A stretch of 64,000 bases of DNA from Ahrensia sp. (GTDB lineage: Bacteria; Pseudomonadota; Alphaproteobacteria; Rhizobiales; Rhizobiaceae), in assembly GCA_002706335.1 (NCBI GenBank), contig PAKZ01000032.1, positions 97,466 to 161,465 on the forward strand, read 5' to 3'. Below, one piece after another: positions 6,573 through 47,700 of the stretch; within the stretch, counting starts at the first letter, position 1; each line of letters opens with the position of its first letter. The position numbers were made by a program, and so were the translations under genes. Below the pieces are notes generated by a model. That model ran no database searches. It had not been told where the DNA came from and worked only from the letters and a program-made list of their open reading frames with translations.

Positions 6573-6588
6573 GCAACCTATGTGCCAA
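6573..6588 (-). promoter_or_regulatory. Sigma54 -24/-12 promoter of the hupSL operon
   Basis: The minus strand reads TTGGCACATAGGTTGC, an exact TGGCAC-N5-TTGC, about 59 nt upstream of the hupS ATG. An AT-rich tract (6589-6640, IHF-like) follows. A 9-bp direct repeat TTGGAAACC sits at 6664-6672 and 6684-6692, about 100-130 bp upstream of the predicted start. Confidence 0.8.
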
Positions 6589-6762
6589 TTCGATATTATT
6601 ATTTTTATTCAGATAGTTATCTTGATTTAAAGCCTCTACGACTCAATAAACTGAGAACATGAATTGGAAACCCGGCAACCGGTTTGGAAACCAGCTGACC
6701 GCCGGGGCGTTGCCGAATGAAAGGAAACGGGCGACAAACGGGCGTCTTTCTGGATTGCGCAA

Positions 6763-7713: not shown

Positions 7714-7868
7714 GCCTTCCGCAAAGCAGTGCGATGACCGGCCTCTTAACGGATTACTGAAAGCGTACTGGTGTTTTCGGATTCCGATCAGCGTCGAGAA
7801 CAATGCAAGGCCGACCCTAGAGGGCACCTAATCGCCACAAAACAACTAAGAACACTTAACCAGACAGG

Positions 7869-7895
7869 AAATGGCCGCCTCTCGGGCGGCCATTT
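7869..7895 (+). terminator. Stem-loop between convergent ansA and dctM (probable intrinsic or bidirectional terminator)
   Basis: aaatggccgcc-tctcg-ggcggccattt followed by TTTGCCTTT. Confidence 0.5.
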
Positions 7896-7934
7896 GCCTT
7901 TACAACTCTGCAAATCGTCATGAATCGCCGAAGC

Positions 7935-9814: not shown

Positions 9815-9881
9815 GTTGTTTACTCCCGGAAGAAAAGGGGCGGTTTCCGGCCGCCCCTCTCGTTTCAGATATACCGCCAGC

Positions 9882-25757: not shown

Positions 25758-28586
25758 ATGAAGACGACACTCGCATCAGCAATTGCGCTATTGGCCATCG
25801 CCCTGGCTGACCCTGCCCCGGCGCAGGAGACGGAGGGCAAAGCGCCGATAGACCAGACGCTCCTCAAATCCGCCGAGAGCGGCGATCCAAGCGCGCTTTA
25901 CGATCTCGGCTGGGCCTATCTAGAGCGCAAGGAAGTGGAGGCCGCATCGACCACGTTCCTCAAGGCAGCTGATGCATTCGAAGTCTCTACTGGAGAAGAC
26001 AGTCTCAAGTGGAAAGCCGAGAGTTTTTCCGCCCTCGGCTACGCTCATATGCAGCAAGGCGCCGACGGCTACGACCAGGCGGCCGACTATTACCGCCGCG
26101 CGGTCGAGACCTACGGTCTGACGGACGGCGAGGATATGGGCGGCCTGAAGCCAGCACTCTACAATCTCGGCTGGATATATAGGGCCAAGGGCGGCGCGGA
26201 GAATCTGGAATCAGCGCGCAAATATCTGCGCATGGCACTGGACCTTTACGCGAATGCAGAAGGTGACAATCTTAAATGGAAGGGTGCCGTATTCAGCATG
26301 CTGGGCGACGCACATCTTGACTCGGCCCACTTCACCGACGCGATGACGTCCTACGATTCCGCCATGTCTATCTATGCGCAGATTGGCAACATGCCCGCTC
26401 TTGCTGCCAGCCTGGAGAGCAAGGGCATGGCACTCCAGGGCCTGTCGAAGTACGAAGCGGCAATCGCGCTTTTCGGGCAGGCCCGCCAGATCCGTATCCG
26501 CGAATTTGGCGACACGAGCCGCGAGGTTGCCGACACCTGGCTCGACGAGGGCATCAGTCTTGAAGGGCTGCATCGCTACGATGAGGCGCTCGACGCTTAC
26601 ACCGAGGCGCTCCTGCGCTACACGAAGGCTCTCGGCCCCGACGCCGCCGAAATAGGATGGGCAACCAACAATATCGGTTGGGTGCATCGCCGCCTCGAAA
26701 ATTACGAAGTCTCGAAACGCTGGTTCCTGAAAGCGGAACCGATCATTGTCCGCCATGAGGGGCGCTATTCGCGCAACGCCGGCAAGGTCGCGATCAATAT
26801 CGGCATCATCGAGCACTATCTCGGCAACCAGGATTCGGCGATCCGCTGGACCATGAAGTCGATGCCTTACATCAAGGCCAACCACGAGATCACGCTGGAG
26901 GAACAACGCTGGGCCTTCGATACATTTGCCCGCGCCTTCCGCGCGAAGGGGGATCCGAAGCGCGCGATCGCCTTCGCCAAACTCGCGGTCAATGCGCAAC
27001 AATCCATTCGCTCGGCGAACAAGTCGCTGTCGGAAGGTGAAAGCAAGGAACTGAAGGACGAATGGCGGTGGCTCTACCAGCATCTCGCCGACATGCTGAT
27101 CGAGCAAGGCCGTTTCACCGAAGCGCAAGCCGTGCTCAATATGGAAAAAGAGCAGGAAGTGTTCGAATTCCTGCGCCGCGACGCCTCGGCCGACCTTCGC
27201 GACACACGCGCCCTGCTCAATGACGCAGAACAGGACGAGGAGGTCAAGATCGCCGCCCTTTCGGAATTTCCGCTCGCCGCGGCGCGCGAGCTCGATCAAC
27301 TCATCGGAAAGATCGAGCGCGACGAGGCGACCGATGAGGATATCGAGAAGATCGATGTCCTGCAGGCGAGCATTGACCGGGCGGCTGAGAATTTCGACCA
27401 GCAGGTCGACGCCTTCCTCGCCGATGTCGAGGAGGACCGCAAACAATCTTTCGAGAGCCAGTTCGATGCCGTTGGAAGCCAGCAGGCGATCCTCGAGGAA
27501 TTCGAGCAGAAGACGGCGATCCTGCAGGTCGCAGCGATCGACAAGGCGACGCATATCTTCGTCACGATGCCCAGTGTCACGCTGCACAAACAGTCCGACG
27601 TCTCGAAGGTCGAACTGTCGCGCATGACCTTCGATGCACTGGTCGCCATCGAGGCGCGCAGCGCCGACACGACCGAGAAGCTGAAGGCGCTTTATGACGT
27701 GGTTGTCAGACCCGTTTCACAAGACCTGAAGGAGGCGGGCGTAGAGGTTGTCATGCTCAATCTCGACGGCTTCCTCCGATATCTCCCCTTCGCGGCGCTT
27801 TATGACGGCGAGCATTACTTCGTCGAGGATTACGCGGTGGCGCTCTACACGCCCTCCGTGCCGACGCAGTTTCGCCGCGGCGACCGGCTTGCCGCAAAAA
27901 GCGCCGGCTTCGGCGTTACCGCCGCGCATCCCGGCTTCTCTCCGCTGCCCGGCGTGAAGCGCGAGATCGAGCAAATCTTCGCTGGCGAGGACAACAATGG
28001 CATACTTGAGGGCCCGGCCGAATTCGATGATGCTTTTTCGGAAAAGAGCCTGCGCCTGACCCTTCTGAAAAAGCCGGAAATCCTGCATATCGCCAGCCAT
28101 TTCAACCTGATGCCGGGCCAGATCGACAACTCGTTCCTTCTCCTCGGCGATGGCGCGCATCTTCCGCTTTCGGATATCCGCAACAAGCGGGCGCTCTCTT
28201 TCAAGGGCATCGACCTCGTGACCCTCTCTGCCTGCCAGACCGCCATGGGCGGCGGTGGCGACGGGTCAGAGATCGAAGGGTTCGGAACGACGGCGCAGAT
28301 GAGCGGGGCCTCCGCAGTCATGGCGTCGCTGTGGCCTGTCGCCGATGAAGCGACAGCGAAGCTGATGGAGGATTTCTACGACAACATGATGCGCGGCGGC
28401 ATGTCGAAAGCTGACGCGCTGCGCGCCGCCCAAATAACCATGATGCGCGGCAGCGAAACACTCGCAGCCTCCGAAGGGGGCGAACGCGCCGCAATGTCGA
28501 AACAAAAACGCAAGGCCGACGCGTCAACGGGATTTTCCCATCCCTATTTCTGGTCGTCTTTCATACTGATCGGAAACTGGCTGTGA
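25758..28586 (+). CDS. Exported TPR-repeat CHAT-domain protease
   Basis: Signal peptide MKTTLASAIALLAIALADPAPA/Q. Multiple TPR-like repeats (YDLGWAYL, YNLGWIY, ALSFSMLGDA...). C-terminal CHAT motifs ILHIASHF and LVTLSACQTA, then SLWPVADEAT and HPYFWSSFILIGNW. GGAGG ribosome-binding site. 21 nt after the caspase gene. Confidence 0.85.
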   Translation: MKTTLASAIALLAIALADPAPAQETEGKAPIDQTLLKSAESGDPSALYDLGWAYLERKEVEAASTTFLKAADAFEVSTGEDSLKWKAESFSALGYAHMQQGADGYDQAADYYRRAVETYGLTDGEDMGGLKPALYNLGWIYRAKGGAENLESARKYLRMALDLYANAEGDNLKWKGAVFSMLGDAHLDSAHFTDAMTSYDSAMSIYAQIGNMPALAASLESKGMALQGLSKYEAAIALFGQARQIRIREFGDTSREVADTWLDEGISLEGLHRYDEALDAYTEALLRYTKALGPDAAEIGWATNNIGWVHRRLENYEVSKRWFLKAEPIIVRHEGRYSRNAGKVAINIGIIEHYLGNQDSAIRWTMKSMPYIKANHEITLEEQRWAFDTFARAFRAKGDPKRAIAFAKLAVNAQQSIRSANKSLSEGESKELKDEWRWLYQHLADMLIEQGRFTEAQAVLNMEKEQEVFEFLRRDASADLRDTRALLNDAEQDEEVKIAALSEFPLAAARELDQLIGKIERDEATDEDIEKIDVLQASIDRAAENFDQQVDAFLADVEEDRKQSFESQFDAVGSQQAILEEFEQKTAILQVAAIDKATHIFVTMPSVTLHKQSDVSKVELSRMTFDALVAIEARSADTTEKLKALYDVVVRPVSQDLKEAGVEVVMLNLDGFLRYLPFAALYDGEHYFVEDYAVALYTPSVPTQFRRGDRLAAKSAGFGVTAAHPGFSPLPGVKREIEQIFAGEDNNGILEGPAEFDDAFSEKSLRLTLLKKPEILHIASHFNLMPGQIDNSFLLLGDGAHLPLSDIRNKRALSFKGIDLVTLSACQTAMGGGGDGSEIEGFGTTAQMSGASAVMASLWPVADEATAKLMEDFYDNMMRGGMSKADALRAAQITMMRGSETLAASEGGERAAMSKQKRKADASTGFSHPYFWSSFILIGNWL

Positions 28587-28641
28587 CAGTTTCCGGATAC
28601 CCGCTAGAGGCAACACAATCGCAACACTGAAAGGACTGATT

Positions 28642-29691
28642 ATGAGGAAAATACTGAGCAAGATCGCCGGCGCCGCGGCGATCGCCCTTGTTTTGCAGGC
28701 GATGGCGTCGGCGGAACCGATGTGGGAGAAAAAGGAAGGGTCGCCGGACATGCCGTTCAACTTCGCGGCGAGCCCGGAAAAGGCCGCGATGCTGGAAGGC
28801 AGCTCCGAAGAAGAACGCTCTCGCGTCCTGAACGGCAAGATCGCCGCAGACGGTGCCTGGCCGTGGCAGGTCGCCCTTATGCGCGTCGACGTCGAACGCG
28901 ATCTTCTCTCGCAATTCTGCGGCGGCTCGATGATCCAGAACGACTGGGTACTGACGGCGGCCCACTGCGTGGTCGAGCAGCGCCAGGACGGCTACTACAT
29001 CATCGATCCGGCCAAGACCCGCATCATGGTCGGGACGAACCGCATTTCCAATGAGGGCGATTTCGTTGAAGTTCAGCAAATCATCGTCAACGAAAACTAC
29101 GATCCCAACGGTTTCGACAACGACATCGCGTTGATCAAGCTTGCACGCGTGCCCAACGCGAATTTCAAGACGATCACGATTCCCACGGGCGAATATGCCG
29201 ATATCCTCGAAAAGCCGAACACCGAAACGATCGTGACCGGCTGGGGTCGAACTGAAGCTGGCACGCCGTCGCGCGAACTCCGCGAGGGCCGTATCGAGAT
29301 TATCGATCGCAATATCTGCAACGCGGCCCTTCTCGCAGGCCCGATGAAGGCGGCGGCCGGCTACTTCCAGCAGGCGGCCGATGCGCTTGCCCTGTCCGGC
29401 AACGACGCCAACACGCTCTGGGATGAGATGCTGGACAGGGTTCCGGTGCCGCTCACCGAGAACATGATCTGTTCGGGCACGCCGGAAGGCCCGCGCGGCG
29501 CATGCGACGGCGACAGCGGCGGACCGCTTGTCATCGGCGTCGGCGAAGGCAAATACATACAGGCGGGTATCGTCAGCTGGGGCCTCGCCTCGACAGATGG
29601 TGTCGGTTGCAATCGCGACGCCAAATTCTCCGCCTATACCCGCACCGGCAACTATGCCGACTGGGTTCTCACGAAGCTCGGCTACAAGTAA
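28642..29691 (+). CDS. Exported chymotrypsin-fold (S1A) serine protease, apparent zymogen
   Basis: Signal peptide ...QAMASA/E. Triad LTAAHC (His108), DNDIALIKL (Asp161), GDSGGP (Ser292). SR/VLNGKIAADGAWPWQVAL resembles the R/IVGG activation junction. Gly occupies the position equivalent to trypsin Asp189. Confidence 0.9.
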   Translation: MRKILSKIAGAAAIALVLQAMASAEPMWEKKEGSPDMPFNFAASPEKAAMLEGSSEEERSRVLNGKIAADGAWPWQVALMRVDVERDLLSQFCGGSMIQNDWVLTAAHCVVEQRQDGYYIIDPAKTRIMVGTNRISNEGDFVEVQQIIVNENYDPNGFDNDIALIKLARVPNANFKTITIPTGEYADILEKPNTETIVTGWGRTEAGTPSRELREGRIEIIDRNICNAALLAGPMKAAAGYFQQAADALALSGNDANTLWDEMLDRVPVPLTENMICSGTPEGPRGACDGDSGGPLVIGVGEGKYIQAGIVSWGLASTDGVGCNRDAKFSAYTRTGNYADWVLTKLGYK

Positions 29692-29717
29692 GCTGGCTCT
29701 TCGCGAAACCGGTTTTG

Positions 29718-29746
29718 AAGGCGGCGGATTTTCCGCCGCTTTTTTT
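29718..29746 (+). terminator. Rho-independent terminator after the S1 protease gene
   Basis: aaggcggcgga-ttt-tccgccgc followed by TTTTTTT. Confidence 0.8.
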
Positions 29747-29749
29747 ACG

Positions 29750-31195
29750 TCAGTCCGGCGAAATACGGCGTTTGCCCTTGGACGAAATCCCCTCATAGGA
29801 GCGCAGGAAATTGCGGAAGACCGGGTGCTGGCGCAACGCCAGGCGACCTGCCTCAATCGACAGATCAACCTGCTCGCCCGGCAGTTTGAGCCGCGTGGGA
29901 ACCTGGTTCAGTTTCGCCTCCATCTGGCTATCGAGCTGGTCGAAGCGCAGTTCGGCGACATAGAGTTTCAGGTTGCGGCAATTCCATTTGCGCGGATCGC
30001 CGCCGAATTTCCTGACCTCCGCACTGCTCAGCGAGCAGCGATAGGCAATCAGATCCTGCTGCCAGCTTTCCATCGCGGCCTTGAACGCGTCGAAGCCCTC
30101 GCGCGTCGCCGACGCCATTGCCGTATCCGCGATCGCCGACACAAGTTCGAGACCGCCCGGACCGGCGACCTCGTTCGCCCAGTCGCCATCGAGTTCGCGG
30201 CCCGCATTCGAGACGATGAAAACCATGCGTTCCAGCGCCACCGCCTCTTCCTCGCTGAAAGGAGCGTGTCGGGTCTGCGCGCGACCCCGCGCGATCGAGA
30301 TACCGGTCAGGCCGAAATTGTCGGTCACTGCGCCATCGAGCAGCTTGACGTAGCGCATCTTCTCCGGATCCCGGTAATTGCGCAGCGCCCGCGCATAGGC
30401 GCGCAGCGAGGCCGAAGCCTCAGTATTGTAGGCCGCCGTGGTCAGCCATGCCGGCGGCTCGTAACTGCAGCGCGGCCCGTAGGCTTCGAGAACGATCGGC
30501 GAGAAGACGATGGGCACGGCCGCCGACGCCGCGACAGCCTCGGCGACCGGAAGCCTGTTCAGGTCGCTGCAAAGGGCGCGGAAAGTCTCCGGCTCGAAGG
30601 TGAACGGCGTCCGGTTGTAGATGTCCGACGCGTTGATCCAGGTGGTGATCTGTTTGTTACGATAGAGGTCTGCGAACGTCGCGCCCTTGAACAGGTTCTC
30701 GTCCAGCCAGCGCCCGAACCCTTCCCGGCTGTTGACGCCGCCGCTCGCCGCACGAAGCAGATTGACCGGATCGAGCTTCGAAGTGCGCATATATTCCTCG
30801 CCGTTCCTGACGAGGAAATGCTGTTTGAAGTCGGAAAAACCGCGCGCTCCCTTGAGACCGAAATAGGCTGCGGTCACCGATCCGCCGGATACTCCGGAAA
30901 GGAACCGTATTTCATCGAAAGCCGATATACCTTTCTTTCCGGGGATCGCGGTCTCCTGCATTTCGCTCAATATTCCGTAGGCGAAGGCCGCGGCGCGCGT
31001 GCCGCCGCCTGAAAAAGCCAGCGCCACAAAATCGCTGTCAGCGCTCATGCCGTCGTCTTGCGCCGTCAACCCCGGCGCTTGCTCGACCTGGATTTCCGAG
31101 AAAGAGTTCAGCGTATCATTGACCGAGACACAGCCTGCCAGCATGGCAGCTGCGGTCAAGCCGGCAATGCGGCGCAAAATCGTCGATCGCGACAT
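29750..31195 (-). CDS. Patatin-like phospholipase, lipoprotein
   Basis: Lipobox AAAMLAGC. Oxyanion FSGGGTRAAAF. Nucleophile elbow GVSGG (Ser codon 30887-30889). Asp motif DGAVTDNFG. Start taken at the ATG 31193-31195 (the track ORF starts 10 codons earlier). Confidence 0.85.
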   Translation of the reverse strand: MSRSTILRRIAGLTAAAMLAGCVSVNDTLNSFSEIQVEQAPGLTAQDDGMSADSDFVALAFSGGGTRAAAFAYGILSEMQETAIPGKKGISAFDEIRFLSGVSGGSVTAAYFGLKGARGFSDFKQHFLVRNGEEYMRTSKLDPVNLLRAASGGVNSREGFGRWLDENLFKGATFADLYRNKQITTWINASDIYNRTPFTFEPETFRALCSDLNRLPVAEAVAASAAVPIVFSPIVLEAYGPRCSYEPPAWLTTAAYNTEASASLRAYARALRNYRDPEKMRYVKLLDGAVTDNFGLTGISIARGRAQTRHAPFSEEEAVALERMVFIVSNAGRELDGDWANEVAGPGGLELVSAIADTAMASATREGFDAFKAAMESWQQDLIAYRCSLSSAEVRKFGGDPRKWNCRNLKLYVAELRFDQLDSQMEAKLNQVPTRLKLPGEQVDLSIEAGRLALRQHPVFRNFLRSYEGISSKGKRRISPD

Positions 31196-31339
31196 GCGGT
31201 TTCCAACTCCCCTGCGGCCCCGCAACTTTTCTAGGCCAAAGCATGTCGGCTGCCAACCGGTTGCGTTCTCTGCCCTTTTAGTGCCGAATTCTGGCTGATG
31301 ATTGATCGTCGGGGCAAGTGAAGGCTGGAGCCACAGATT

Positions 31340-32011
31340 ATGAAAATTTCCTTGCGCGCGGTTGGCGTTTCCGCGTTGATCCTTGCGAGCGCCGTCGCAA
31401 CAACGAGCTACGGCCAGTCGGCCGCGGAAGACCCGCAGGCGGCCGCACTGAAACTGATCCGGATGTCGCGTACATTACACGACCGGGCAATCGAGACCTC
31501 CGATCCAGTCCTCATGCTTTCAGCGGCAAGGTTGCGCAAGGATTCCGGCATGAAAGCTGGCGCGCTTGGCACGCTGGAAAATAGCGGCGAAGACGCTGGC
31601 GACATTTCGGGGGAGACATTCAGCTGGGAACGCTGGCTTGAAGAAGCCGTGCGGCTTTCGGGCGGCAGCGATGTGATCGCCGGGCTCGCCACCGATATCC
31701 GGACATCCGGATCCAAGGGCCTCGCAGGCCAGGCAGTCTATACCGAAGGCCGCCTCGCGGCGCATTCCAGCCATAGATACAGCGATCTGAATTTCGTCGG
31801 CGGCGAGTTCGCCGAAGTCTATTCCGAAGGTCTCGGCAAGGCGGATATCGATCTGTTCGTGCGCGACTCGCGCGGCGCGATCGTCTGCTCACAGACGGAT
31901 TCGAGCAATATCAACCAATGCGGCTGGACGCCGGGCGCGACCGGTCCCTTCGAGGTCACGCTGGAAAACAAGAGCGATTTCGCAGACACGTACGCGCTGA
32001 CCACAAACTGA
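31340..32011 (+). CDS. Small secreted protein: helical N-domain plus PPC-like (pre-peptidase C-terminal type) beta-sandwich
   Basis: Signal peptide. The N-domain is paralogous to ORF 35755-36147. The C-terminal pattern YSDLNFVGGEFAEVY...GKADIDLFVRDSRGAIVCSQ...GPFEVTLEN...YALT fits the DxDLYxxD-type PPC signature. Confidence 0.65.
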   Translation: MKISLRAVGVSALILASAVATTSYGQSAAEDPQAAALKLIRMSRTLHDRAIETSDPVLMLSAARLRKDSGMKAGALGTLENSGEDAGDISGETFSWERWLEEAVRLSGGSDVIAGLATDIRTSGSKGLAGQAVYTEGRLAAHSSHRYSDLNFVGGEFAEVYSEGLGKADIDLFVRDSRGAIVCSQTDSSNINQCGWTPGATGPFEVTLENKSDFADTYALTTN

Positions 32012-32519: not shown

Positions 32520-35500
32520 CTAGTTCGATCCGACAACGACAAACGGCGCCCAGACAGAGGGATGCGAACCGCCCGGCAAATCGGGATCCTCGAGCAAGGA
32601 TAGCATCGAGCGCCGCAGGCTTTCGGCATGGCCGATGATTGCGTCCTTCGCCCGCGCCGCTATCGCGCCTTGCGTCAGCAAGGCAGCGGCATCGTCTCGC
32701 ACCGGCCAGTGCGACACAAGCAGCGAACGCGCGCCGGCATAAAGGAAGGCGCTGGCGAGCCCCGACAGCCCCTCGCCGCCCGGCGTCCCGTCCGGCGCCG
32801 CGGTGTTGCAAGCTGACAGGATCACCCAGTCGGCAGCCAGATCGAGTTCCGCAGCTTCCGAGGCCGTGAGCAATCCGTCGTCGAGATCGCTTGGGGTTTG
32901 CGGGGCCGAAAAGGCAAGCGCCGGCTCGGCAAGGCCGTCGAGATCGCCGGCGACCAACCCATGCGTGGCGAAGGTGACGATGGCAGCTTTCGAGACAAGC
33001 TGCGAATTCTTCACCGCCTCCTCGGTCGCCTGCCCACCAAAGCGAATCGCATCGTCGGAAACGCCGAGCAGCTTCGCCAGTCCCTCGACCTCGCGACGCG
33101 TTCCCGGCAGCGGCGGCAATGACCGCACCGCGCGCGTATCCGCAACTCCGCGGTTGAAGTAGCCTGCGATCTGCACCGGCTGCTCCGTCTCCTCGCTACC
33201 AGAGAAATCCGGATCGCCGAACGCAGCGAAGACCGCCTCGGCCTGGCGCGGATTGGAAAAGCGGCGCAGCGTCTGCAGGCTCATCGCAGAGGGTAGCGCC
33301 GCGAAAGCATGATGACGAACGAGCCAGTCGGTGTCGCGAAGCGCCAGAGGATCGGAATCCGCCCCGTTGGGCGGCGAAGCGACCAGCACGGACAAAGGCA
33401 GGCCGGCGAGCGCCCCTTCCTTAACGACGAGCACCGTGCCGCGCCCGTCCAGCACGTCAGCGATCGGGGCGATCAGCTTCCCATAGAGATCATACGCCGT
33501 CGCCCTGTCGAATGTCGGGCCGCTGACGGCCTGCGGTTGCTTCAGGCGCTTGGCGGCGCGGGCAGCCCCAAGCGGATCGAGATCCTTGCGTAGCGCCCGG
33601 ATCTTCCCGTCGAGATCCTGTTCCGACAGCGGCGTCCGCGCCCATCTCGCGTCGTCGCGGTTCATCGCGAACACATAGGTCTCGTCCGATGTCGTCACCG
33701 GCATTAGCAGAGCCTCGTCCGGCTCGAGCAGGGCCTGGATATCGGCCACCGAAAGCACGTCGGGTTGTGTCAGCCGGGCGTAATCGGGAAAACGCGCCCC
33801 GATCTCGTCGTCGAGCGTCCTGATTTCCGCGGTGATCGTATCGATGCGGCCCTGCAGACTGACCGAAACCTCATTCGAGGCCCCGGAGGTGCCGACAGCG
33901 TTCAGGAACTGCCTGTCCGCCGCCCGCCAGTCATTGACCAGATCCTGTTTTCGCCGCGCCAAGTCGGCGATTTCGCCCTCACCGGCCGCAAATCGCGCCG
34001 CGACCCGACGGACCACTTGCGCCGCCGTCGATGACTGCGCCCATTGCGCAGAACGGAAGGCTTCGTCGATCCCTGTCACAGGGTCGGTCTCCCATAGCGC
34101 GGCGACCATCGCCATCACCTGCCGGCGCTTTTCACGCAGTCCCGCCGCGCCGATCGTCTCGTCCGCGCCAAGCCGCGCTGTATTGAGCTTGTATAGATCG
34201 AGCGCCTTGCGGGCGACATCACGCGCAGGCTCCGCCTCCCCGGCGCTTAGTTGCAACCAAGCAAGATTGAAAAGCGACGTAACAACATCAGAATGCCCTG
34301 TCGGCCGGTTCTTCTCGAAGATTACACTTGCCTCGCGCGAAACGCCTATCGCTTCTTGGGAACGTCCCAGGAGAAAATAGGCGGTAGCGAGGTTTGACTC
34401 CGCCCGGGCGAGCCGCAGGATATCGCCGGTCGCGCGCTGGATGGCCACCGCTTTCTCCAGCGAGGCCACTGCATATTCGGTCTGGCCCGCGCGCAACAAT
34501 GTCAGACCGATATTGGAGAAAGAAACCCCGATCTCCGCGTGCGGCGACTGGAAAATGGCAAGGCGAATATCGAGTGCCTTGCGCTGCGTATCGAAGGCCT
34601 CCTGAAACAGAAACTGCCCGCGATAGACCTCGCCAAGCCCATCGAAAATCGTGGCGGCGAGCGGCGTTTGTCCGAGCCCTGCTTCCGACAGGACCCGTGC
34701 GCCGTCTTCGAACAGGCCCTCGGCATCCGCCAAACGTCCTTGTTGAGACAGGAGCGCGCCGAGATTGTTGAGGAGCGTCGCATCGTCCTGCGCGGTCCAG
34801 TCCTTTGTTCGCGGCAGGCCCGCCGCCTGCGATAGCGCCTCCCGGTAAAAGGTCTCCGCATTGGCCGTTTCACCACCCAGCGACGCGATCCGGCCGGCGA
34901 CATTGAGCACCTGCGCTCGATCGTAGGCGGAGAGATCCGGCAACATCGGGGTCAACTGGCCGAGCAACTGTTTGGCCGAGCCGAGATCGCCGTTCTCAGC
35001 CTGCAGCGCCGCAAGCGTCGCCGCATTCCTGATCAGATCGGTGCGGTCTACATCAGAACCGTTCAGCGTTCGCTCGACCGCTTTGGCCGCCATCTCCTCG
35101 GCCTCCGCCAGTCGACCGCTATCCTTCAGGATGGAGGCCAGCAATTGCCAGGACTGCACAAGCGCATTGTCAAGCGCGCTATTGGCCTCGCGCATCGCCA
35201 GCGCATCGCGCGCCATGGGTTCCGCCTCGGCGATCCGGCCCTGTCGGGCCACCACGGCGGCCAGATTATGGAGCGCAGAAGCCACAGAGAGCGGCGACGG
35301 CGTCGCCGCCTGGCGCTGCATCTCCAGCACCTCGCGAAACAGGCGTTCGGCCTCCGCAAAATTGCCGGAATCGACAAAGGCGCGCCCTTGCATCGTCAGG
35401 TCGAAGGTCTTTCTTATCAGATCGTCTTCGGAAAGTGTTTGGGCACTCGCGGTCAGCCAAGGAGCACCGACCAGACAGAACAACAGCAGGGCCGCCCGCG

Positions 35501-35540
35501 CCCCCTTCGCGCATACGAAAACCAAAGGCACCTCCCCCAA
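32520..35540 (-). CDS. Exported TPR-repeat CHAT-domain protease (second copy)
   Basis: Leader ...LLLFCLVGAPWLTASA/Q. At least 8 TPR-like repeats. CHAT motifs IVTFATHG and WVILSACNTA, then LLVSHWPVRDDAA and HPSVWAPFVVVGSN. Non-ATG start (TTG/GTG between 35525 and 35540), so the exact start is uncertain. Confidence 0.8.
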   Translation of the reverse strand: MGEVPLVFVCAKGARAALLLFCLVGAPWLTASAQTLSEDDLIRKTFDLTMQGRAFVDSGNFAEAERLFREVLEMQRQAATPSPLSVASALHNLAAVVARQGRIAEAEPMARDALAMREANSALDNALVQSWQLLASILKDSGRLAEAEEMAAKAVERTLNGSDVDRTDLIRNAATLAALQAENGDLGSAKQLLGQLTPMLPDLSAYDRAQVLNVAGRIASLGGETANAETFYREALSQAAGLPRTKDWTAQDDATLLNNLGALLSQQGRLADAEGLFEDGARVLSEAGLGQTPLAATIFDGLGEVYRGQFLFQEAFDTQRKALDIRLAIFQSPHAEIGVSFSNIGLTLLRAGQTEYAVASLEKAVAIQRATGDILRLARAESNLATAYFLLGRSQEAIGVSREASVIFEKNRPTGHSDVVTSLFNLAWLQLSAGEAEPARDVARKALDLYKLNTARLGADETIGAAGLREKRRQVMAMVAALWETDPVTGIDEAFRSAQWAQSSTAAQVVRRVAARFAAGEGEIADLARRKQDLVNDWRAADRQFLNAVGTSGASNEVSVSLQGRIDTITAEIRTLDDEIGARFPDYARLTQPDVLSVADIQALLEPDEALLMPVTTSDETYVFAMNRDDARWARTPLSEQDLDGKIRALRKDLDPLGAARAAKRLKQPQAVSGPTFDRATAYDLYGKLIAPIADVLDGRGTVLVVKEGALAGLPLSVLVASPPNGADSDPLALRDTDWLVRHHAFAALPSAMSLQTLRRFSNPRQAEAVFAAFGDPDFSGSEETEQPVQIAGYFNRGVADTRAVRSLPPLPGTRREVEGLAKLLGVSDDAIRFGGQATEEAVKNSQLVSKAAIVTFATHGLVAGDLDGLAEPALAFSAPQTPSDLDDGLLTASEAAELDLAADWVILSACNTAAPDGTPGGEGLSGLASAFLYAGARSLLVSHWPVRDDAAALLTQGAIAARAKDAIIGHAESLRRSMLSLLEDPDLPGGSHPSVWAPFVVVGSN

Positions 35541-39617: not shown

Positions 39618-42600
39618 TCACTGCAGGGTGAACTGGCTATATTGCGGCTCGCTGCGCACGGATGGCATCTGACGGCCCCCGGAGAGTTCCAGCACATTGG
39701 CGCTGACATATCGGAACAGCTCGCTGAGCTCCACCGCATCGTCGCCATTGCTGTCCGCCTTCCTTGATCGCAACCCGTCGAGAAGCACATGGGTGAAGAG
39801 ACCGTTGGCGACATCGGGAGTTTCGAAGGCGAACTGGAAGCCGCCGGAGGCGGAGATGATATTCGCTCCGGAGCGCGATTTCGTGTCGAGGAAATTCGCC
39901 CTCAGGACCTCGTAACTGTCCTCCAGCGAAACCGTGTTCTTCCTGCGAGCCAACGGTACCGCGCCACGCGCATCGCGCGCGACCACCGCCCCGGTCGTGA
40001 AGGCGACCCGCTTGTCGGTCTTCAGGCTGGGGTCGATGACGCCGGAATGGCAGGCGTCGATCAGCATGACGCGGTGAAGCGAGTTCGTATCGTCGAAAAT
40101 CGATTCGAGCCTTCGAAACGGGATCGCACTGTTCGCGAGGTCGTCCAGATCCGTTTCGTGACTTCCCAGATAGTAGCCGTAGTCGTCGTCGAGCAGGCCA
40201 TGGCCGGCGAAGAAGAAGAGCGTCTTGTCCTGCGGCCGGGCCTGCGCGAAAAACCGCCGCGCCTCGTCGACCAGATCGGCGGTCGACTCGCCATCGGTGG
40301 CGACATGCACGACCGCATCGGCGGTGCCGCCGAAATAGGCGCCGATATCGCGCGCATCCTTGGCCGCATAGGTCAGATCGAGCGCATCGTCGCTGTAATC
40401 CGAGACGCCGACGGCAAACACATAGAGTTTGGGCGGAGCGATGCCCTCCGGCGGCGCGCGGCGAATGGTCGTCCTGAACAGTGTCCGCTGCACGCCCCGC
40501 GGATCGGTTTCGGTGAACCGGATCCGGTTCAATCCCGGCTCCAGCGGAACATGCAGGGCTTGCCCGTCCGATGCTGCGGAAATGCCGAGCCTTTCCAGAA
40601 CGATCCCGTTATTGCGCAATTCCACCGTCCGCAGGCCCGCCTGCCCGTCGGAAGACAAGGTGAATTCCGCGCTGTCCGATCCGGTGATCGCATCGGTCTC
40701 CTGCACGACCGTCAACTCCGCCGCCGCGGAGAGCGTCATGGGCGACGGCCTGCCGCTGCCGGTTTCGAGAAGCCTCTTTTCGTGCAGCCGGGCCAGCAGG
40801 AGTTCGCGGTCGGGCGTGATCAGCCCTGCCCGCGACAGGGCAATATCGGGCCGGTTGCGAAAAATATCGGCCTCGAAGAGATCGACGCTGCCGCCCCACG
40901 TATCGATGAAGCTCAGCCGCCGGAGCCGGTTCTTGTCGCCCGCATAATAGCCGTCCGAGGTCAGGACCACACTGCCCTCGAAATTCTTCGAGCGTGCGCC
41001 GTAGAGAGGGTCGAAGATCGCGGCGACCATCTGGTCGTTGGCCGGCATGCCAAAGGCGATGTCGTATAACCGGTCGCCATAGACCGGCGTGGCATAGTCT
41101 AGGTCGATGTCGGCGGTTTCCCATATCCGGATCACGCCCTCACGCCCGCGCGTGACGAGACCGCTCCCGTTCCAGGACAACGACCCGACCGCGGCGTCAT
41201 GCGCCTGCAAGGTCTGGCGGACGGCCCCGGATTGCAGATCCTCCAGGACCACGCTGCCGCTATCCGTTCCGATCCCCAGCATCCGGCCCGAGGCATCGAA
41301 TTCCATCGCTGTGACATTCCCCTGCCAGCCGGGGAAAATCTCGGCGGTGCGCTTGCCATCTGCGAGGTCCACGATGAAGACCAGCGAGACATTCTCCGAC
41401 CACCGTCCATTGTCCGGCGCCCGCATGTTCGCCACCGCGGCGTAACGCCCGTCCGGGCTGATGGCGAGCGGCGTATCGCTGGTGAAGTTCCAGCGGTCGG
41501 GCGCATGCAGCGGAAAGCTCCTTTCCAACGTCACCGCATCACCATCGATACGACCGATCGCGAGGCTGACGGTCTGGAGAGACCCTTCCGGATCGGTATT
41601 CCGGATGAAGATCGGGCGGCCTTGCCACGGCCCTCGCCCGGCTTTCACATCGGTGATTTCCGCCGGAACGATATCCGCCGAAAGCTTGCGGAGCGCGACG
41701 CCTTCGCCATCCAGAACCACGAGTCCGTCGCTTGCGAGAAGAAACACCTGTCCATCGTCCACGGCGAGCGCACGCGACAGCGGCAGTGAAGGTGCTTCGA
41801 AATCGCCGAGATGCCGCCACCCGCGCCCTGTCATCCGCGCCAGATGTGTCCGGTCGCCGTCCGACCCGCTGACCGTGTAGGCCAGAAGGATGTCCCGTCC
41901 CTGCCACCGGATATCGGCATCGATCAGACGAGCATCGGCGGCGTTCACGCCCGCAAGCGCGAGAAGGTCCTGATATTCGGTCCTGTTCGTCTCGGGCTGT
42001 TCGGCGATCAATATCCCGTTGGCGGTGACGGACCAGAGACGCTTGTCGGCAACCGCCCGCGCCAGGATGGCGGAGACATCCTCATAGCCCGTCTCCGCAA
42101 CCAGATCGCCGAGAACGGAACGCGTCTTGAGATCGACCATGAAGACGGAGTCGCCGCCCGCAAGGACGAATGCCAGCGCGGCATCGTCCGCCACGATCAG
42201 CTTTTTCGCACCGTCGATCGCGCGATCGAACGCTTCGACTTGCGGATCGCCCGCTCCCAGCCCGTAAACGCCCGCATCGGTGACCAGACTTGCACTGTCT
42301 TTGGAAAATGCGAAGGCCGTCCCTTCGACCGTGCGCCGCAGGCCCGATTCCAGGGTCTCGATAGTGATCCGCCCGCTCGGACGGCAGTCCGGGGTGGCAT
42401 CCGGCTCAGCCCATGCCAGCATAGCGCCGTCGGGGGAGAGACGCAGGCTTTGCGAGCTCACCTCTAGGCACTGCGTTGAGCCGAGTTTCTTTTCGACCAA
42501 CCGGTCCCCGAGCGAAATCCGGCCGTCCTTGCAGTATGCCGACAGGAAGTCCGTTGTGCCGCACCGATCCGGGAAATCCAGCGCATCGACCCTAAGGACA

Positions 42601-44081
42601 CCGGCCCGATCGAGGCTGGCGATACGTTTCGTCGCCTCCGACGCGGAGATGGCGATGATCGACTCTGGTGAAATGTCGGATAGCCCCATCTCTTCGTCAT
42701 AGCCCACATTCACGAATCCGATTTGTCCGAGATTGGTCCCGACCGCCGCGTAGACCCCGAGAACATCCATCGCCGTGAAATTCTGTTCGCTCGAAAACCT
42801 CAGAAAATGGCCGAACCCTTCGAAGCCATCCTTCTGGATGATGAAGCCCTTGATCGAGAGATCGTCATCGGCCTGTAGCAGCGCCGAGGAACTGGAGGAA
42901 CCGAAGATGCGGCCGCCGAAGTCCGAATGAATGACCTTCGTCACCTTCTGGCTTCTGACATTCCAGATCCCGAGCGTCTGCCGGCTCTTGCCAGCCCCGC
43001 CCGGCGCCGGCTGCTCCAGGAGGATCAAAGACCCGCTCGATGGGACGAAAGCGATATCGGTGACCCGGTCGCCGCCGGGCGCCATGAATGACGGGTTGAC
43101 CACCTCGAATGTCGAGCGATCGACAGGCACCGACGCATGACGATACTGCGTGTCGAATTGCCAGGCGACATGCAGCAACGAAGTGCTTCCATCGGCCCGC
43201 TGCATGGGAGACGGCTTGTCGGAGGAAATTTCGCGGCTGACACGCACGGCGAGCCCGGTTTCGACATCGACATCGGCGGTCCATCGCACGGAGAGCGGCA
43301 CGCTGCCCTGAGCGCCGGCCTCGATGGAGAACCGCGCAATTTCCCGCCCCCAGCGCGTGCCGACATCCTTCAGGGTGATCGTTCGCCAGGTCGTGTTGTC
43401 GCCAAGGACATCGTTGAAGGATGGTCCCGGATCGACCGCCTCCCCGACAATGAAGATCTTGCCGTCAAGATAGCGCCCGAACCGCGCATAGAACGGCGCC
43501 CCGTCCAGAAACACCAACGCCTTTGCGGCCTCGTCCTCCGGAAGACCGGTTTCGACAAACGTCCCCTCCGCGTCCTTCTCGAAATAACGAAGCGATCGTT
43601 CGCCCGTGTCCCCGTCTTCGATCCTGTATCGGCCGGTCCTTACCGGATAGAACGGGTCCATCGTCTCGCTTTCAGGGCTCGATCCCCGCGAAACGCTTTG
43701 CCGGTTGACGTCGATGTCCGTAACGAGCGCGCCGGCTTCGCTTCTCTGAACAGAACCGTATCGCGCGACCGCGGTCGTCACATCGGGAGCGGCGGAGAAA
43801 TCGGCTTCGGTCTTCGCGTTGATGAAGCGCCGAACGGCCCGGAGATAGATCACGACCTCATCGTTTTCGGCGTCACCGACATAGCGGAAGCTAACGGACG
43901 ATCCGCTACTCCCGTCAGCGGACGCAGCCGGCACATCGGCCGCGAAGACGCAAAGCGCCACGACCGCGACGGCAATCGACTTTGCCGTCAGGCTACGAAA
44001 GACGTCCGCAAGGGAAAGGATCGGGGAGAATACCTGCATCGCTTGCCGGAACTCAGCATCCTCCGAAAGCATAGGTGGCAT
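39618..44081 (-). CDS. Exported WD40/beta-propeller repeat protein with C-terminal caspase-like (C14) protease domain
   Basis: Leader ...SIAVAVVALCVFAADVPAASA/D. WD40-type repeats (for example VTAMEFDASGRMLGIGTDSGSVVLEDL..., HDAAVGSLSWNGSGLVTRGREGVIRIWE). Caspase dyad LFFFAGHG and VMLIDACHSG. The start is ambiguous (44081, 44072 or 44039). Confidence 0.85.
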   Translation of the reverse strand: MPPMLSEDAEFRQAMQVFSPILSLADVFRSLTAKSIAVAVVALCVFAADVPAASADGSSGSSVSFRYVGDAENDEVVIYLRAVRRFINAKTEADFSAAPDVTTAVARYGSVQRSEAGALVTDIDVNRQSVSRGSSPESETMDPFYPVRTGRYRIEDGDTGERSLRYFEKDAEGTFVETGLPEDEAAKALVFLDGAPFYARFGRYLDGKIFIVGEAVDPGPSFNDVLGDNTTWRTITLKDVGTRWGREIARFSIEAGAQGSVPLSVRWTADVDVETGLAVRVSREISSDKPSPMQRADGSTSLLHVAWQFDTQYRHASVPVDRSTFEVVNPSFMAPGGDRVTDIAFVPSSGSLILLEQPAPGGAGKSRQTLGIWNVRSQKVTKVIHSDFGGRIFGSSSSSALLQADDDLSIKGFIIQKDGFEGFGHFLRFSSEQNFTAMDVLGVYAAVGTNLGQIGFVNVGYDEEMGLSDISPESIIAISASEATKRIASLDRAGVLRVDALDFPDRCGTTDFLSAYCKDGRISLGDRLVEKKLGSTQCLEVSSQSLRLSPDGAMLAWAEPDATPDCRPSGRITIETLESGLRRTVEGTAFAFSKDSASLVTDAGVYGLGAGDPQVEAFDRAIDGAKKLIVADDAALAFVLAGGDSVFMVDLKTRSVLGDLVAETGYEDVSAILARAVADKRLWSVTANGILIAEQPETNRTEYQDLLALAGVNAADARLIDADIRWQGRDILLAYTVSGSDGDRTHLARMTGRGWRHLGDFEAPSLPLSRALAVDDGQVFLLASDGLVVLDGEGVALRKLSADIVPAEITDVKAGRGPWQGRPIFIRNTDPEGSLQTVSLAIGRIDGDAVTLERSFPLHAPDRWNFTSDTPLAISPDGRYAAVANMRAPDNGRWSENVSLVFIVDLADGKRTAEIFPGWQGNVTAMEFDASGRMLGIGTDSGSVVLEDLQSGAVRQTLQAHDAAVGSLSWNGSGLVTRGREGVIRIWETADIDLDYATPVYGDRLYDIAFGMPANDQMVAAIFDPLYGARSKNFEGSVVLTSDGYYAGDKNRLRRLSFIDTWGGSVDLFEADIFRNRPDIALSRAGLITPDRELLLARLHEKRLLETGSGRPSPMTLSAAAELTVVQETDAITGSDSAEFTLSSDGQAGLRTVELRNNGIVLERLGISAASDGQALHVPLEPGLNRIRFTETDPRGVQRTLFRTTIRRAPPEGIAPPKLYVFAVGVSDYSDDALDLTYAAKDARDIGAYFGGTADAVVHVATDGESTADLVDEARRFFAQARPQDKTLFFFAGHGLLDDDYGYYLGSHETDLDDLANSAIPFRRLESIFDDTNSLHRVMLIDACHSGVIDPSLKTDKRVAFTTGAVVARDARGAVPLARRKNTVSLEDSYEVLRANFLDTKSRSGANIISASGGFQFAFETPDVANGLFTHVLLDGLRSRKADSNGDDAVELSELFRYVSANVLELSGGRQMPSVRSEPQYSQFTLQ

Positions 44082-44736
44082 GAACGCCGATGAGCGCCAA
44101 CAGGTCGCGATCCGTCTTGCCTGTCGGTTCGACGCCGATTTCGCTCTGGAACAGCTTCACGGCTTCCGCTGTTTCCGCCGTGTAGTACCAGTCCGGCGCA
44201 TCGGCGAAATAGCCGCCCACCAGCAGATACTTCTCCAGCCGTTTGACGGCGGGATAGAGATCGCCGGGTTCCATCAGAAGCGGTTGGGCAAGCTTGTCGG
44301 AGGCTTGGCATACCGCATCAGGCGCCGGTTTCAGGAAGAAGCTGCCGTCGATCACGGCGCCATCCGCTTCCATGGCACCAAGTGCGGTAACGACGCTTTC
44401 CATGCGGACCGATTCCACGCGCCGGTTCGAAAACTCGGCGAGCAATCCATCGCGCACCCGCATCAGCGTGATGCGCCCGCCGTCGCATTCGAGCGAACAC
44501 GTGACCGACCCGTTTTCGGGAAATTCGCAGGAGTCTGTGTAGGGCGCGTAAGGATTGACGGTCTTCGCATAGGTGATCGACCCGCTTCGGTCGATGGTCA
44601 TTATGCCGACGCCGGAATCGGGCGTTGCTTTCTCCAGCGTGTAGCAGCTGGCCGGTTCCGCTCCGAACGCGGGGCCGCTCACAAGCGCAACCGAAATGGT
44701 GGCCGTGGCAAGCCCCGAGGCGATACGAGACATCAT
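44053..44736 (-). CDS. Secreted protein with C-terminal peptidoglycan-binding-like domain
   Basis: Signal peptide ...VALVSGPAFG/A. The C-terminal VKRLEKYLLVGGYF...TAETAEAVKLFQSEIGVEPTGKTDRDLLALI fits the PG_binding_1 helix pattern. The ATG overlaps the upstream CHAT gene stop. Confidence 0.65.
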   Translation of the reverse strand: MMSRIASGLATATISVALVSGPAFGAEPASCYTLEKATPDSGVGIMTIDRSGSITYAKTVNPYAPYTDSCEFPENGSVTCSLECDGGRITLMRVRDGLLAEFSNRRVESVRMESVVTALGAMEADGAVIDGSFFLKPAPDAVCQASDKLAQPLLMEPGDLYPAVKRLEKYLLVGGYFADAPDWYYTAETAEAVKLFQSEIGVEPTGKTDRDLLALIGVHATYAFGGC

Positions 44737-47700
44737 GATGTGCCCTCCAGTACGACAATCGGTGCCCAGTAATAGGGATGTCTCTCGTCCGGTACGGTCA
44801 TGCCGGCGCCCTTCTGTTTGGATTTGGCGGAACGGAAGTCGGTGCTCGCCCCCTTGTGCTCGCCGCGCAGGAACTGCCGCTGCACCTGTGCGAGCGCGCT
44901 GGCGACGGACAGGCCCTTGTCGATCTGATGCTTGTAGAACTCCTGCATGAAGACTGCCGTCGAACGGTCGTTGATCGGCCAGAGCGTGGCGACGATTTCA
45001 AGCGCGCCTTTCTGCTGCGCGACGGCGGCAAAGCTCTCCAGTTCGCGGCCGTCAGCCTCCCGCCGGCCATACGCGGTCTCGCAGGCCGACAGGGTCAGCA
45101 CACCGACCTCGGCGAAATCGAGATCCATCCCGAAACTGTCCTTGATGTCGGCGACGGTCAGCCGGTCACCATCGCCAAGCAGCAGGTAGGAATCGTCCTC
45201 CGAACTGCCGAGGATGAAATGCGAGGCGAGATGAACGATGCCAAGCGTCGGCTCGTCCGGCTCCCCGAATATCAAAGCGCTCGCCATCGTATCGCGGGTG
45301 AAATCCGCGTCGGCATGGATCGTGCCGTCGACCACCCCCTGCGCGTCCTCGCCGCCCTCGCGCACAATCGCGGAGAGTTCGTCGGCAACGCCGGGAAGCG
45401 GCGATAGACCGTACCAGGAATTGGTCGTTCCGAACCCCGCGATACGGTCAGGCGATGCCCCGCCCCCTCCGACCGACCGCGTTTCGGTCGCATGCGTCAG
45501 GTCGAAATCCTCGACCAGATAGTGCTCGCCATCATGGAGCGCGGCGAAGGGCACGTAACGCAGCCGGCGATCCAGCGACAAGATCAGCGTTTGCGTACCG
45601 GCATCCTCCAGTTCGCGCATCAACTCCCCTGGGAGAACCAGATCGTGCAAGGCCTTGGAGGCGGGCTTCGGATCGGTGCCCGGATTCTGCAGCGCCTTTC
45701 GCAAGGATTCGATTCCGGCGTTCAGCCGCTCTTCCGTGAACGGCGCGCCCTCCCATTCGGTCCAGCTGAACACCCTTTCGGAGACCGCGGTCGTAAGGAT
45801 TGCGCCGACCCGGTCCGGCAGGACGACATACTGGATCGCCGCCGCCTTTCCGTCAAAGGCGCGGCGCAAATGCGCCCGTACCGAGCTGACATTGCGCGCC
45901 AGATCCTCGACGACAGTGCTGTGCACGGCGTCAGAGGCCGCGATCAGCCCTTCCAGTTCCTTTTCCATCTCTTCGCGCGAAGCGACGAGCGTGTCAGTCA
46001 AGGAGGCAAGTTCGGTCTCTTCCGCGCCGGTCAACTCGCCGCTCTTGCGTTGCAACAGCAATTCGCGCCGCCGGATTTTCAAGGCTGTCACGGTCGGACG
46101 AACCGCATCGATCTTGGCGGACAGCGCCTCTTCTGCGGGGTTCATCTCCAGCGTGGCAAAGGCATCGCCCGCGAAATCCGTGTCGCGACCGAGAAATTCG
46201 AAGGTCTCGAAGGATTTGAGCATGCCGAGAACGGTCGACGCCTCGGCCGGCCGGTCCTGGCTGATGAAGAGATCGGCCAGCCAGCGATAGTGATCGGAGA
46301 TCGTGTCGCGGAAACACATTTGCAGATGTTCCGGCAGCCCGGAAATGCGCCGACGCACATCCTGCAGTTCATTGACGGCGCGCTTCGCCAGCGTCAGCGC
46401 CATCGCCGCCTCGTCGAGCGCGTAAAGGCGCTCGCTCGCCTTGGAAAGCGTACAGACCCGCCCGAGCGATGCCTCGATATTGCCGTTCCAGACAGCGGTC
46501 ATGGCGTGGCGCGCCATGTCGGCGGTCAGCGCGACCAGTTCCAGCTCGACGGCGCGCAGTCTGTTGCCGGCGTCCGCTTCCAGCTTCGCCAGTTGCCGGG
46601 CGGACAGCGCCAACCCCATACTGTTGCCCGAGAGACCTTCGGCCAAGGCAAAGCGTTCGCGAGCTGCACCGATGTCGACCGAGACATCCGGTCTCGGCTC
46701 GTCAGCGGTCGACGCCAGTTCGAGCAGGGCGCGTGCCGCCTCGTCTCCCCGTTGGGCGAGCATCTGAAGAACACGTTCGAGCGGATCCCACGCCTCATCA
46801 GGTCCGCCCTCTAGGTGGCGGGCAAGTGCACGGCGGAACGCGGCTCCACGCGACGCGCCGACCTCGCCATCTGCGGGAAGGGCACGCACCAGGCGTAGCG
46901 ACTCCAGCGCCCCGGCATAGTCGCCGTAATAGGAGAGGACATCCACCCAGCCGGCGATGGCATAGGCGGGACGCGTCCTAGTCGACTCGTTATAGGGGGG
47001 CAGCCGCCCCTGTTCGCGCAGTTCGGCCTCCTCGGACGCTGCCGCCTGCGCCAACCATTCATATGCATAGGCGACGATATCCGGTTCGCCCCCCCCAAGA
47101 GCCGCAACCCGATGGAACTCGACGCAATCGGCGAAGCCCTGTACGGCAGGCTGGCAGATTTCGTCCGCCGCCGCCTTGAATGCCTCGGTTCCCGGCGCGT
47201 AGCGATAAAGGCCCAGCAGCGTGCCCTTCGTCAGTCGGGCAAGCTCGTTTTCGTCCGCCTGCAATTCCGGCTGCGCCAGCAGGATACGTGTCAGCTTGCC
47301 ATTCGCGTCCTCGTCATCCGCAAGGCGATACCACGCCGCGGCCTTACCGAGATCGACGGTCGGTCCGCCATCAAGCCCCGCAAAGGCGTCGCCGAGAGTA
47401 ATCGCGAACTCGACATAGGCCGCCCGCGTGGTCCAGTCCTGCTCCTCGCCGGCGGACGCCCCGATGATCTTGCCGGCATCGTCGAGCAGAGCGCGCCCCG
47501 GCCCTTCGGAAAAGAACTCGCTGCCATTCAGCAGGCGCCCCTGGAACACGCCTGCCGCGCCGTTGGTCAGACGGCCGATTTCACCGTCGAGGCGGAGACC
47601 AGCCCGGTAATAGGCAAGCGCCTTGTCCCAGTCGCGCGGCACATGCTTGCCGGTCTCGTGGAACCGTGCCAGCGCGAGACTTGCGGCCGTCTGCCCCAGC

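Follow-up and report, generated by a model that had tools for sequence, protein, structure and literature searches.

We analyzed a 64,000-nucleotide stretch of an Ahrensia sp. genome (contig PAKZ01000032.1, positions 97,466 to 161,465; hereafter the window, numbered from its first letter) that carries a gene for a chymotrypsin-fold (family S1A) serine peptidase, which we call S1. Three genes lie closely spaced on the plus strand. The first encodes an exported, metacaspase-like peptidase of family C14 (23619..25736; 705 amino acids, aa). The second encodes an exported TPR-CHAT peptidase of 942 aa (25758..28586; Pfam PF12770, 2.3e-58, together with TPR families), with a putative catalytic dyad of H781 and C826. 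The third encodes S1 itself, a pre-pro enzyme of 349 aa (28642..29691). Only 21 nt separate the C14 and CHAT genes, and 55 nt separate the CHAT and S1 genes. A terminator-like GC hairpin with a run of T residues begins 29 nt past the S1 stop codon (29720..29747, plus strand) and is the likely end of a C14-CHAT-S1 transcription unit. Our subject is how S1 would be activated, and the candidacy of C14 as the protease that activates it.

The S1 peptidase has the chymotrypsin fold and lacks Asp189

S1 matched the Pfam Trypsin profile (PF00089, 9e-48) with 163.4 bits against a cut-off of 20.6, placing it within S1A. An AlphaFold2 (AF2) model, which had a mean predicted local distance difference test score (pLDDT) of 84 and a predicted template modeling (pTM) score of 0.83, was consistent with this assignment, as Foldseek matched the model to tryptase and matriptase with TM scores of ~0.85. 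The protein begins with a hydrophobic signal peptide (residues 1-24; 28642..28713, plus strand) that ends in A22-S23-A24 before E25, in agreement with the -3/-1 rule, and AF2 placed a helix at residues 2-21. To assess conservation, we aligned the window protein with 120 database homologues of 43-100% identity, giving 121 sequences. The catalytic triad, consisting of H108 (28963-65), D161 (29122-24), and S292 (29515-17; all plus strand), was invariant in this set. Three cysteine pairs, C93/C109, C226/C277, and C288/C323, were also invariant. These occupy the positions of the 42-58, 168-182, and 191-220 disulfides and are predicted to form the corresponding bonds.

S1 differs from trypsin by an insertion of ~37 aa (residues 229-265; 29326..29436, plus strand), which appears as a gap in the trypsin sequence and lies between C226 and C277, the equivalents of Cys168 and Cys182. 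AF2 modeled this family-specific element as a two-helix hairpin (helices 223-248 and 253-265, pLDDT 88-96), and residues A238, F242, A245, A256, and W260 within it were kept family-wide. We know of no counterpart among characterized S1A enzymes. The less confident parts of the model included residues 201-210, 281-290, and 311-330. These segments correspond to loops 142-152, 184-193, and 216-226 of trypsinogen, the "activation domain" that is disordered in that zymogen. The overlap is only suggestive, as loops often receive low scores in such models, and it could be coincidence.

We next consider the specificity pocket. The residues that shape the pocket and serve activation (29497..29517, plus strand) are G286, A287, C288, D291, and S292, equivalent to trypsin positions 189, 190, 191, 194, and 195. 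BLASTP against bovine trypsinogen aligned G286 with Asp189, D291-S292 with Asp194-Ser195, and S330 with Gly226. Thus, S1 has Asp at neither 189 nor 226 and falls outside the Arg/Lys-specific, trypsin-like subclass. This was true of the whole family: among the 121 sequences, residue 189 was Thr in 91, Gly in 27, and Ser, Ile, and Leu in one each, but never Asp, while residue 226 was Ser in 120. Judging from this pocket (G/T189, A/S190, G216, S226), cleavage after Arg or Lys by the mature enzyme is improbable.

A conserved, predicted activation junction follows an acidic propeptide

Signal peptide removal would leave a propeptide of 37 aa (E25-R61; 28714..28824, plus strand) that is net acidic, with nine acidic and five basic residues. 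It ends at the predicted activation junction, R61/V62-L63-N64-G65 (28822..28836, plus strand), which our alignments equate with K15/I16-V-G-G of trypsinogen. Codon-by-codon translation assigned R61 (CGC) to 28822-28824 and V62-L63-N64-G65 to 28825-28836. The trypsinogen alignment set EERSR/VLNG of S1 opposite DDDDK/IVGG, and a phmmer search of the PDB set R61/V62 opposite the R/IVGG junction of plasma kallikrein constructs. S1 therefore has the layout of an S1A zymogen: a pro-segment, then an N-terminus of the form [IV]-x-[GN]-G, and the Asp194 that receives it.

Conservation at the junction was strict. P1, the residue before the scissile bond, was basic in all 121 sequences (Lys in 74, Arg in 47), P1' was Val in 120, and P4' was Gly in 121. 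Asp194, Ser195, His57, and Asp102 were each present in 121 of 121. In contrast, positions P5 to P2 drifted, with the commonest residue accounting for just 31-72% of the sequences. Since Lys and Arg interchange at P1 and nothing else is accepted, selection appears to act on the basic side chain. Taken together, these data make it very probable that S1 is a chymotrypsin-type zymogen that is cut after a basic residue.

The original prediction, made from the DNA letters, had located the junction at exactly these positions, behind a signal peptide ending near ASA/E and an acidic pro-segment of about 37 aa. It had also aligned R/VLNG with the activation junctions of chymotrypsin-family zymogens and had proposed that Asp291, beside Ser292, receives the new N-terminus. 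Each of these features was recovered here, and the zymogen reading built on them is strengthened by the 121-sequence alignment. The same prediction had noted Gly at the position of trypsin Asp189 and had argued from this against simple auto-activation, an argument that now extends to the family, since residue 189 is never Asp and residue 226 is almost always Ser.

The propeptide also contains a conserved motif (residues 37-48; 28750..28785, plus strand) with the consensus SPFxFAxSxxKA, which reads MPFNFAASPEKA in the window. K47 was present in 121 of the 121 sequences and P38 in 120, and AF2 modeled the motif as two short helices, with pLDDT ~83 over residues 31-50. A related motif, SPMSRVPxxRKA, occurs in a sister clade that has Asp189 (Mesorhizobium, Rhizobiaceae), indicating that the motif is a trait of the S1 family and not of its association with C14. 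The motif may serve in docking or latency, or as a first cleavage site. The propeptide ends in a flexible acidic linker (residues 53-61, plus strand). Residues 56-60, directly before R61, had pLDDT values below 50 and were the least confident part of the model, which fits an exposed cleavage loop.

The C14 peptidase is predicted to cleave after Arg or Lys

The C14 protein matched the Pfam caspase-fold profile PF00656 (1.2e-17) and has a signal peptide at approximately residues 1-30. In a phmmer search of the PDB, the best matches for its p20 domain were Yca1 (7e-19), AtMC4, and TbMCA2, with the GPVNDA, FSGHG, and FDSCHSG motifs aligned. The His-Cys dyad characteristic of p20 domains is present as H120 (23976-78, in FSGHG) and C185 (24171-73, in DSCHSG). 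The acidic specificity pocket is present as well: D57 (23787-89) and D183 (24165-67; all plus strand) correspond to D95 and D211 of TbMC2, which are key pocket residues in that enzyme (PMC6426788). As every characterized non-caspase C14 enzyme cleaves after Arg or Lys (PMC5756287), we predict from the dyad, D57 and D183, and this family rule that the window C14 has the same specificity. The protein also contains a p10-like segment, FYAAQTNQTTPE, which follows a linker holding conserved basic residues. The C-terminal region of ~400 aa had no match in Pfam.

C14 and S1 genes are linked in the orthologous loci and in several further S1 lineages

To examine the gene neighborhood in relatives, we scanned one genome per species and obtained 80 loci with S1 relatives, each with up to 10 kb of flanking sequence. 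Seventeen loci (L001-L016 and L023, at least 42% identity) formed the orthologous clade. In each of the 17, the gene directly preceding S1, in the same orientation, encoded a C14 peptidase; in the window itself, the CHAT gene lies between the two. For L014, a contig edge leaves only the 3' end of the C14 gene. Among more distant S1 loci, C14 was adjacent to S1 or fused to it in nine (L021, L022, L032, L036, L043, L054, L058, L067, and L077). Wherever the catalytic domain of an S1-adjacent C14 lay within the locus, the dyad was kept, and both pocket Asp residues were kept in all but L067. In a neighbor-joining tree, the C14-linked S1 proteins fell into at least five separate groups.

C14 was adjacent to 19 of the 27 S1 genes without Asp189 and to six of the 52 with Asp189 (Fisher p = 2e-7, uncorrected for phylogeny). 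P1 was basic in 25 of 25 scored C14-adjacent S1 genes, or 26 of 26 with L014 included. When S1 lacked Asp189 and had no adjacent C14, P1 was Thr, Asp, Asp, Met, Arg, Arg, and Arg (L014 set aside). We compared the choice of Lys or Arg at P1 with the C14 motifs and saw no tidy covariation across the loci.

In two of the distant loci, L043 and L077, the two protease domains are joined in one polypeptide with the order Trypsin-Peptidase_C14-DUF4384. Both fusions retain the catalytic His and Cys, and both have Asp189. The gene directly upstream of the L043 fusion (6265-9846, plus strand) encodes a protein of 1193 aa in which a C14 domain is combined with a peptidoglycan-binding domain and numerous ankyrin repeats.

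In Rhodobacterales, S1 in many cases belongs to a patatin-C14b-S1 operon, a second C14 paralogue, C14a, lies beside a gene for a conserved secreted protein ("sec223," described below), and an OmpR/HAMP two-component pair is present. The two paralogues were found in L003-L013 and L015. Relative to the window C14, C14b shows ~28-33% identity and C14a ~40%, and neither has lost the dyad or the pocket Asp residues. In 15 related loci (for example, L001 11330-13401 and L006 4297-6372), the cluster includes genes for a HAMP histidine kinase and an OmpR-type response regulator. A tblastn search of the 64-kb window revealed no homologue of this two-component system.

CHAT genes were less constant. A profile search detected CHAT within 10 kb in five of the 17 orthologous loci and in four distant loci, nine instances near C14-S1 pairs in all, and Oricola sp. 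(L081) shares the C14-CHAT-S1 gene order seen in the window. We therefore rejected CHAT as an obligatory partner of S1.

A proposed activation relay and its alternatives

These observations suggest a relay in which S1 would be exported through the Sec pathway as a pre-pro enzyme and would remain inactive until cleavage at R61/V62 releases its 37-aa propeptide. By the chemistry established for S1A zymogens, the cut would free the α-amino group of V62, which would then insert and form a salt bridge with D291, ordering the oxyanion hole and the specificity pocket. Comparative genomics points to the co-encoded, co-exported C14 peptidase as the enzyme that would make this cut. The relay would run one way, from C14 to S1 and from S1 to one or more further substrates, because mature S1 probably does not cleave at Arg or Lys. 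We hold the proposal that C14 cuts pro-S1 at R61/V62, with CHAT as an accessory, with about even confidence.

Four observations make C14 the best-fitting activator. The specificity predicted for it agrees with the R61/V62 site, it carries a signal peptide and would be exported like S1, and conserved adjacency and domain fusion tie it to S1. In addition, the S1 clades that have lost Asp189, and with it the usual route to self-activation, are those tied to C14, and in them a basic P1 is never lost. The original prediction had named either C14 or CHAT, both co-transcribed with S1, as plausible activators. The C14 half of that proposal gained from the strict adjacency, the fusions, and the retention of dyad and pocket, but the CHAT half lost ground with the sparse occurrence of CHAT genes in the orthologous loci. 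CHAT appears to be an accessory that is often present, not the activator.

Several points weigh against a C14-driven relay. We infer the cleavage at R61/V62, both its existence and its direction. Adjacency and fusion show a functional link, not that one enzyme is the activator and the other its substrate, nor which acts on which. A basic P1 is also the commonest state in Asp189-containing S1A relatives with no C14 neighbor (35 of 46), so part of the P1 conservation could be inherited rather than driven by C14. The counts are phylogenetically non-independent, with approximately two independent losses of Asp189 within the C14-adjacent clades. In the window, the immediate upstream neighbor of S1 is CHAT, not C14. 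Finally, the predicted specificity of S1 derives from just four pocket residues.

Some of these points favor a different account, in which S1 is indeed a zymogen but is activated by a genetically unlinked protease, such as a housekeeping protease of the envelope or a genuine trypsin paralogue with Asp189. Linkage of C14 and S1 would then reflect shared substrates, shared regulation, or an action of S1 on C14. The spread of basic P1 residues among S1A relatives without C14 neighbors and the lack of direction in adjacency and fusion suit this account, as does the cluster as a whole, which resembles a group of exported hydrolases under common regulation, accompanied in relatives by a two-component system. 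It sits less well with a same-strand adjacency that is strict over 42-100% identity and that recurs in several separate S1 lineages. Moreover, the C14-adjacent clades without Asp189 all have Arg or Lys at P1, whereas their non-adjacent counterparts often do not, and the predicted specificity of C14 suits the R61/V62 site. We consider an unlinked activator unlikely, though it is the alternative that survives best.

The co-transcribed TPR-CHAT peptidase (25758..28586) is a third candidate for the activator. Its gene is immediately upstream of S1 in both the window and Oricola sp., its putative His/Cys dyad is present, and CHAT genes occur near nine C14-S1 pairs. However, 12 of the 17 orthologous loci have no CHAT gene within 10 kb, and P1 is basic there all the same. 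CHAT enzymes such as Craspase and separase are also not known to share a uniformly basic P1 preference. We regard activation by CHAT as improbable.

S1 could also activate itself in trans, as does VesB of Vibrio cholerae at Arg32-Ile33, a precedent for a bacterial S1A zymogen (PMC6219818). Also in favor of this reading, the sister clades keep both Asp189 and an Arg at P1. In the clade of the window protein, self-activation at a basic site is unlikely because the pocket lacks the Asp that confers Arg/Lys specificity: residue 189 is Asp in none of the 121 sequences, residue 226 is Ser, and the pocket-forming segments of the aligned homologues contain no conserved acidic residue. We judge this explanation to be very improbable. 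Least probable of all is that S1 is not a zymogen, its N-terminal extension being kept on an enzyme active as made or the junction being a pseudo-activation remnant. Nothing specific speaks for this (AF2 yields an active-like fold regardless). P1 basicity, P1', P4', and Asp194 are held invariant or nearly so while flanking propeptide positions drift, and, to our knowledge, all characterized S1A enzymes with a zymogen layout, VesB among them, need the cut.

Other genes of the cluster

Downstream of the hairpin, on the minus strand, lies a gene for a patatin-like phospholipase (29750..31225; Pfam PF01734) with the lipobox LAGC and intact GGGxR, GxSxG, and DGA motifs. Patatin genes are part of the cluster in L006-L011, L015, and L016, and lie directly upstream of C14-S1 in many Rhodobacterales. 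The next gene on the plus strand (31340..32011) encodes sec223, a conserved secreted protein with no match in Pfam or NCBIfam. One to three sec223 copies per locus were found in 15 of the 17 orthologous loci; besides the window, the family occurs in L001-L013, L015, and L017. The protein consists of a helical N-terminal part and a C-terminal β-sandwich with two Cys residues, and it ends in an invariant "...TN." An AF2 model built from a shallow alignment (pLDDT 71) and searched with Foldseek yielded just generic PPC/collagen-binding-like β-sandwich matches and no function. Between the helical part and the β-sandwich, 19 of 20 copies have the junction [ST]-[KR]-G (S125-K126-G127 in the window), which could be a second site of C14 cleavage. 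The patatin lipoprotein and the sec223 family are thus candidates for further members or substrates of the module.

Beyond these genes, the window encodes a second TPR-CHAT protein of 1006 aa (32520-35540), a WD40-C14 protein of 1487 aa (39618-44081), and a Sel1-CHAT protein of 1555 aa (44733-49400), all on the minus strand. The 26-kb stretch from 23619 to 49400 is therefore rich in exported clan-CD peptidases. All of the neighboring peptidases, the patatin, and sec223 carry a signal or anchor sequence at the N-terminus. A secreted protein of 227 aa is encoded between the WD40-C14 and Sel1-CHAT genes (44053-44736, minus strand); it has a weak, SleB-like (cell-wall hydrolase) NCBIfam match that is far under the cut-off.

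We discarded several other candidates. Two long open reading frames (ORFs) that overlap the S1 and patatin genes in antisense (28561-29868, minus strand, 435 aa; 29528-31012, plus strand, 494 aa) have Arg/Ala-rich translations typical of spurious ORFs in DNA of 61% GC. The "unk696" ORF of L006, whose translation is of low complexity and rich in Arg and His, likewise looks spurious in high-GC DNA. The window contains no tRNA genes and no GC anomaly, and its base composition is uniform, so we also set aside a horizontal-transfer island.

Recurrent partners of the exported module are the TPR-CHAT peptidase, the sec223 family, and the patatin lipoprotein, joined in relatives by the OmpR/HAMP pair. 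We tentatively propose, with somewhat less than even confidence, an exported alphaproteobacterial relay in which C14 activates a chymotrypsin-fold zymogen without trypsin specificity, flanked in relatives by a two-component system, with TPR-CHAT, patatin, and sec223 as members or substrates. Options for its purpose include nutrient acquisition, envelope remodeling, antagonism, and self-destruction.

Significance and comparison with known systems

Hardly any physiological substrates are known for bacterial caspase homologues. In the literature that we retrieved, the sole natural substrate was the antitoxin that is cut by MaOC1 (PMC7935541). The locus described here offers a sharply testable case, with one protease, one zymogen, and one scissile bond, R61/V62, and S1 is a natural control because it lacks Asp189. 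If the relay is confirmed, it would provide, for the orthocaspase-like enzymes of proteobacteria, the first defined class of natural substrate together with its cleavage site. A widespread gene pair whose members are annotated merely as "serine protease" and "caspase family protein" would gain a role, and the bacterial envelope would be shown to contain heterologous zymogen cascades, which have so far been characteristic of blood clotting, complement, and digestion in animals, as a bacterial counterpart of these eukaryotic extracellular systems.

Searches of existing resources placed the locus outside described systems. PADLOC reported no defense system in the window, only a generic "caspase" and weak single-domain matches, and NCBIfam held no curated family for S1, the patatin, or sec223. 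Full-text searches of the literature uncovered no paper on an exported C14-S1 pair whose activation site is defined.

One functional parallel is the activation of trypsinogen by enteropeptidase. Like trypsinogen, S1 has an acidic stretch, a basic P1, and a new N-terminus of the [IV]-x-G-G type, and we propose that here, too, a separate protease makes the cut. The proposed activator differs in being a clan-CD cysteine peptidase rather than an S1A enzyme, and the setting is bacterial. Relays from cysteine peptidases to chymotrypsin-fold zymogens have precedents. Cathepsin C activates granzymes and neutrophil serine proteases, and Arg-gingipain, an Arg-specific clan-CD enzyme of bacterial origin, activates host coagulation zymogens. 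In both relays, the cysteine peptidase creates the new N-terminus of the zymogen. These pairs are eukaryotic or cross-species, whereas the window carries the genes for both enzymes close together in a single bacterial genome.

Among bacterial S1A enzymes, VesB of V. cholerae is likewise an exported zymogen that is cut at an Arg/Ile bond after a short propeptide (PMC6219818). Unlike S1, VesB is trypsin-like and self-activating and has an Ig-like domain and a GlyGly-CTERM sorting signal. S1, for its part, lacks Asp189 and differs from VesB in its longer, structured propeptide, its 37-aa helical insertion, and its genetic tie to C14. The window C14 resembles MaOC1, Yca1, TbMCA2, and AtMC4 in its p20 fold, its His/Cys dyad, and both acidic pocket Asp residues. 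It differs from these metacaspases and orthocaspases in being exported and in its C-terminal region of ~400 aa without a Pfam match.

A link between the same two protease domains has been reported in the form of Trypsin-p20-DUF4384 fusion proteins of Alphaproteobacteria (Klemencic et al., 2019; PMC6426788). Proteins of that set have a Gln-Cys pseudo-dyad, in contrast to the L043 and L077 fusions, which keep both His and Cys together with Asp189, and in the window the two proteases are separate genes. Cascades that combine trypsin-like with caspase-like peptidases have also been predicted for bacterial conflict systems (Kaur et al., 2020; PMC7159879), which operate in the cytoplasm and are coupled to NTPases and effector-associated domains. 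The module of the window is exported and lacks these parts. Zymogen cascades and bacterial S1A zymogens are already known; the element for which our searches found no precedent is the exported C14-S1 pair.

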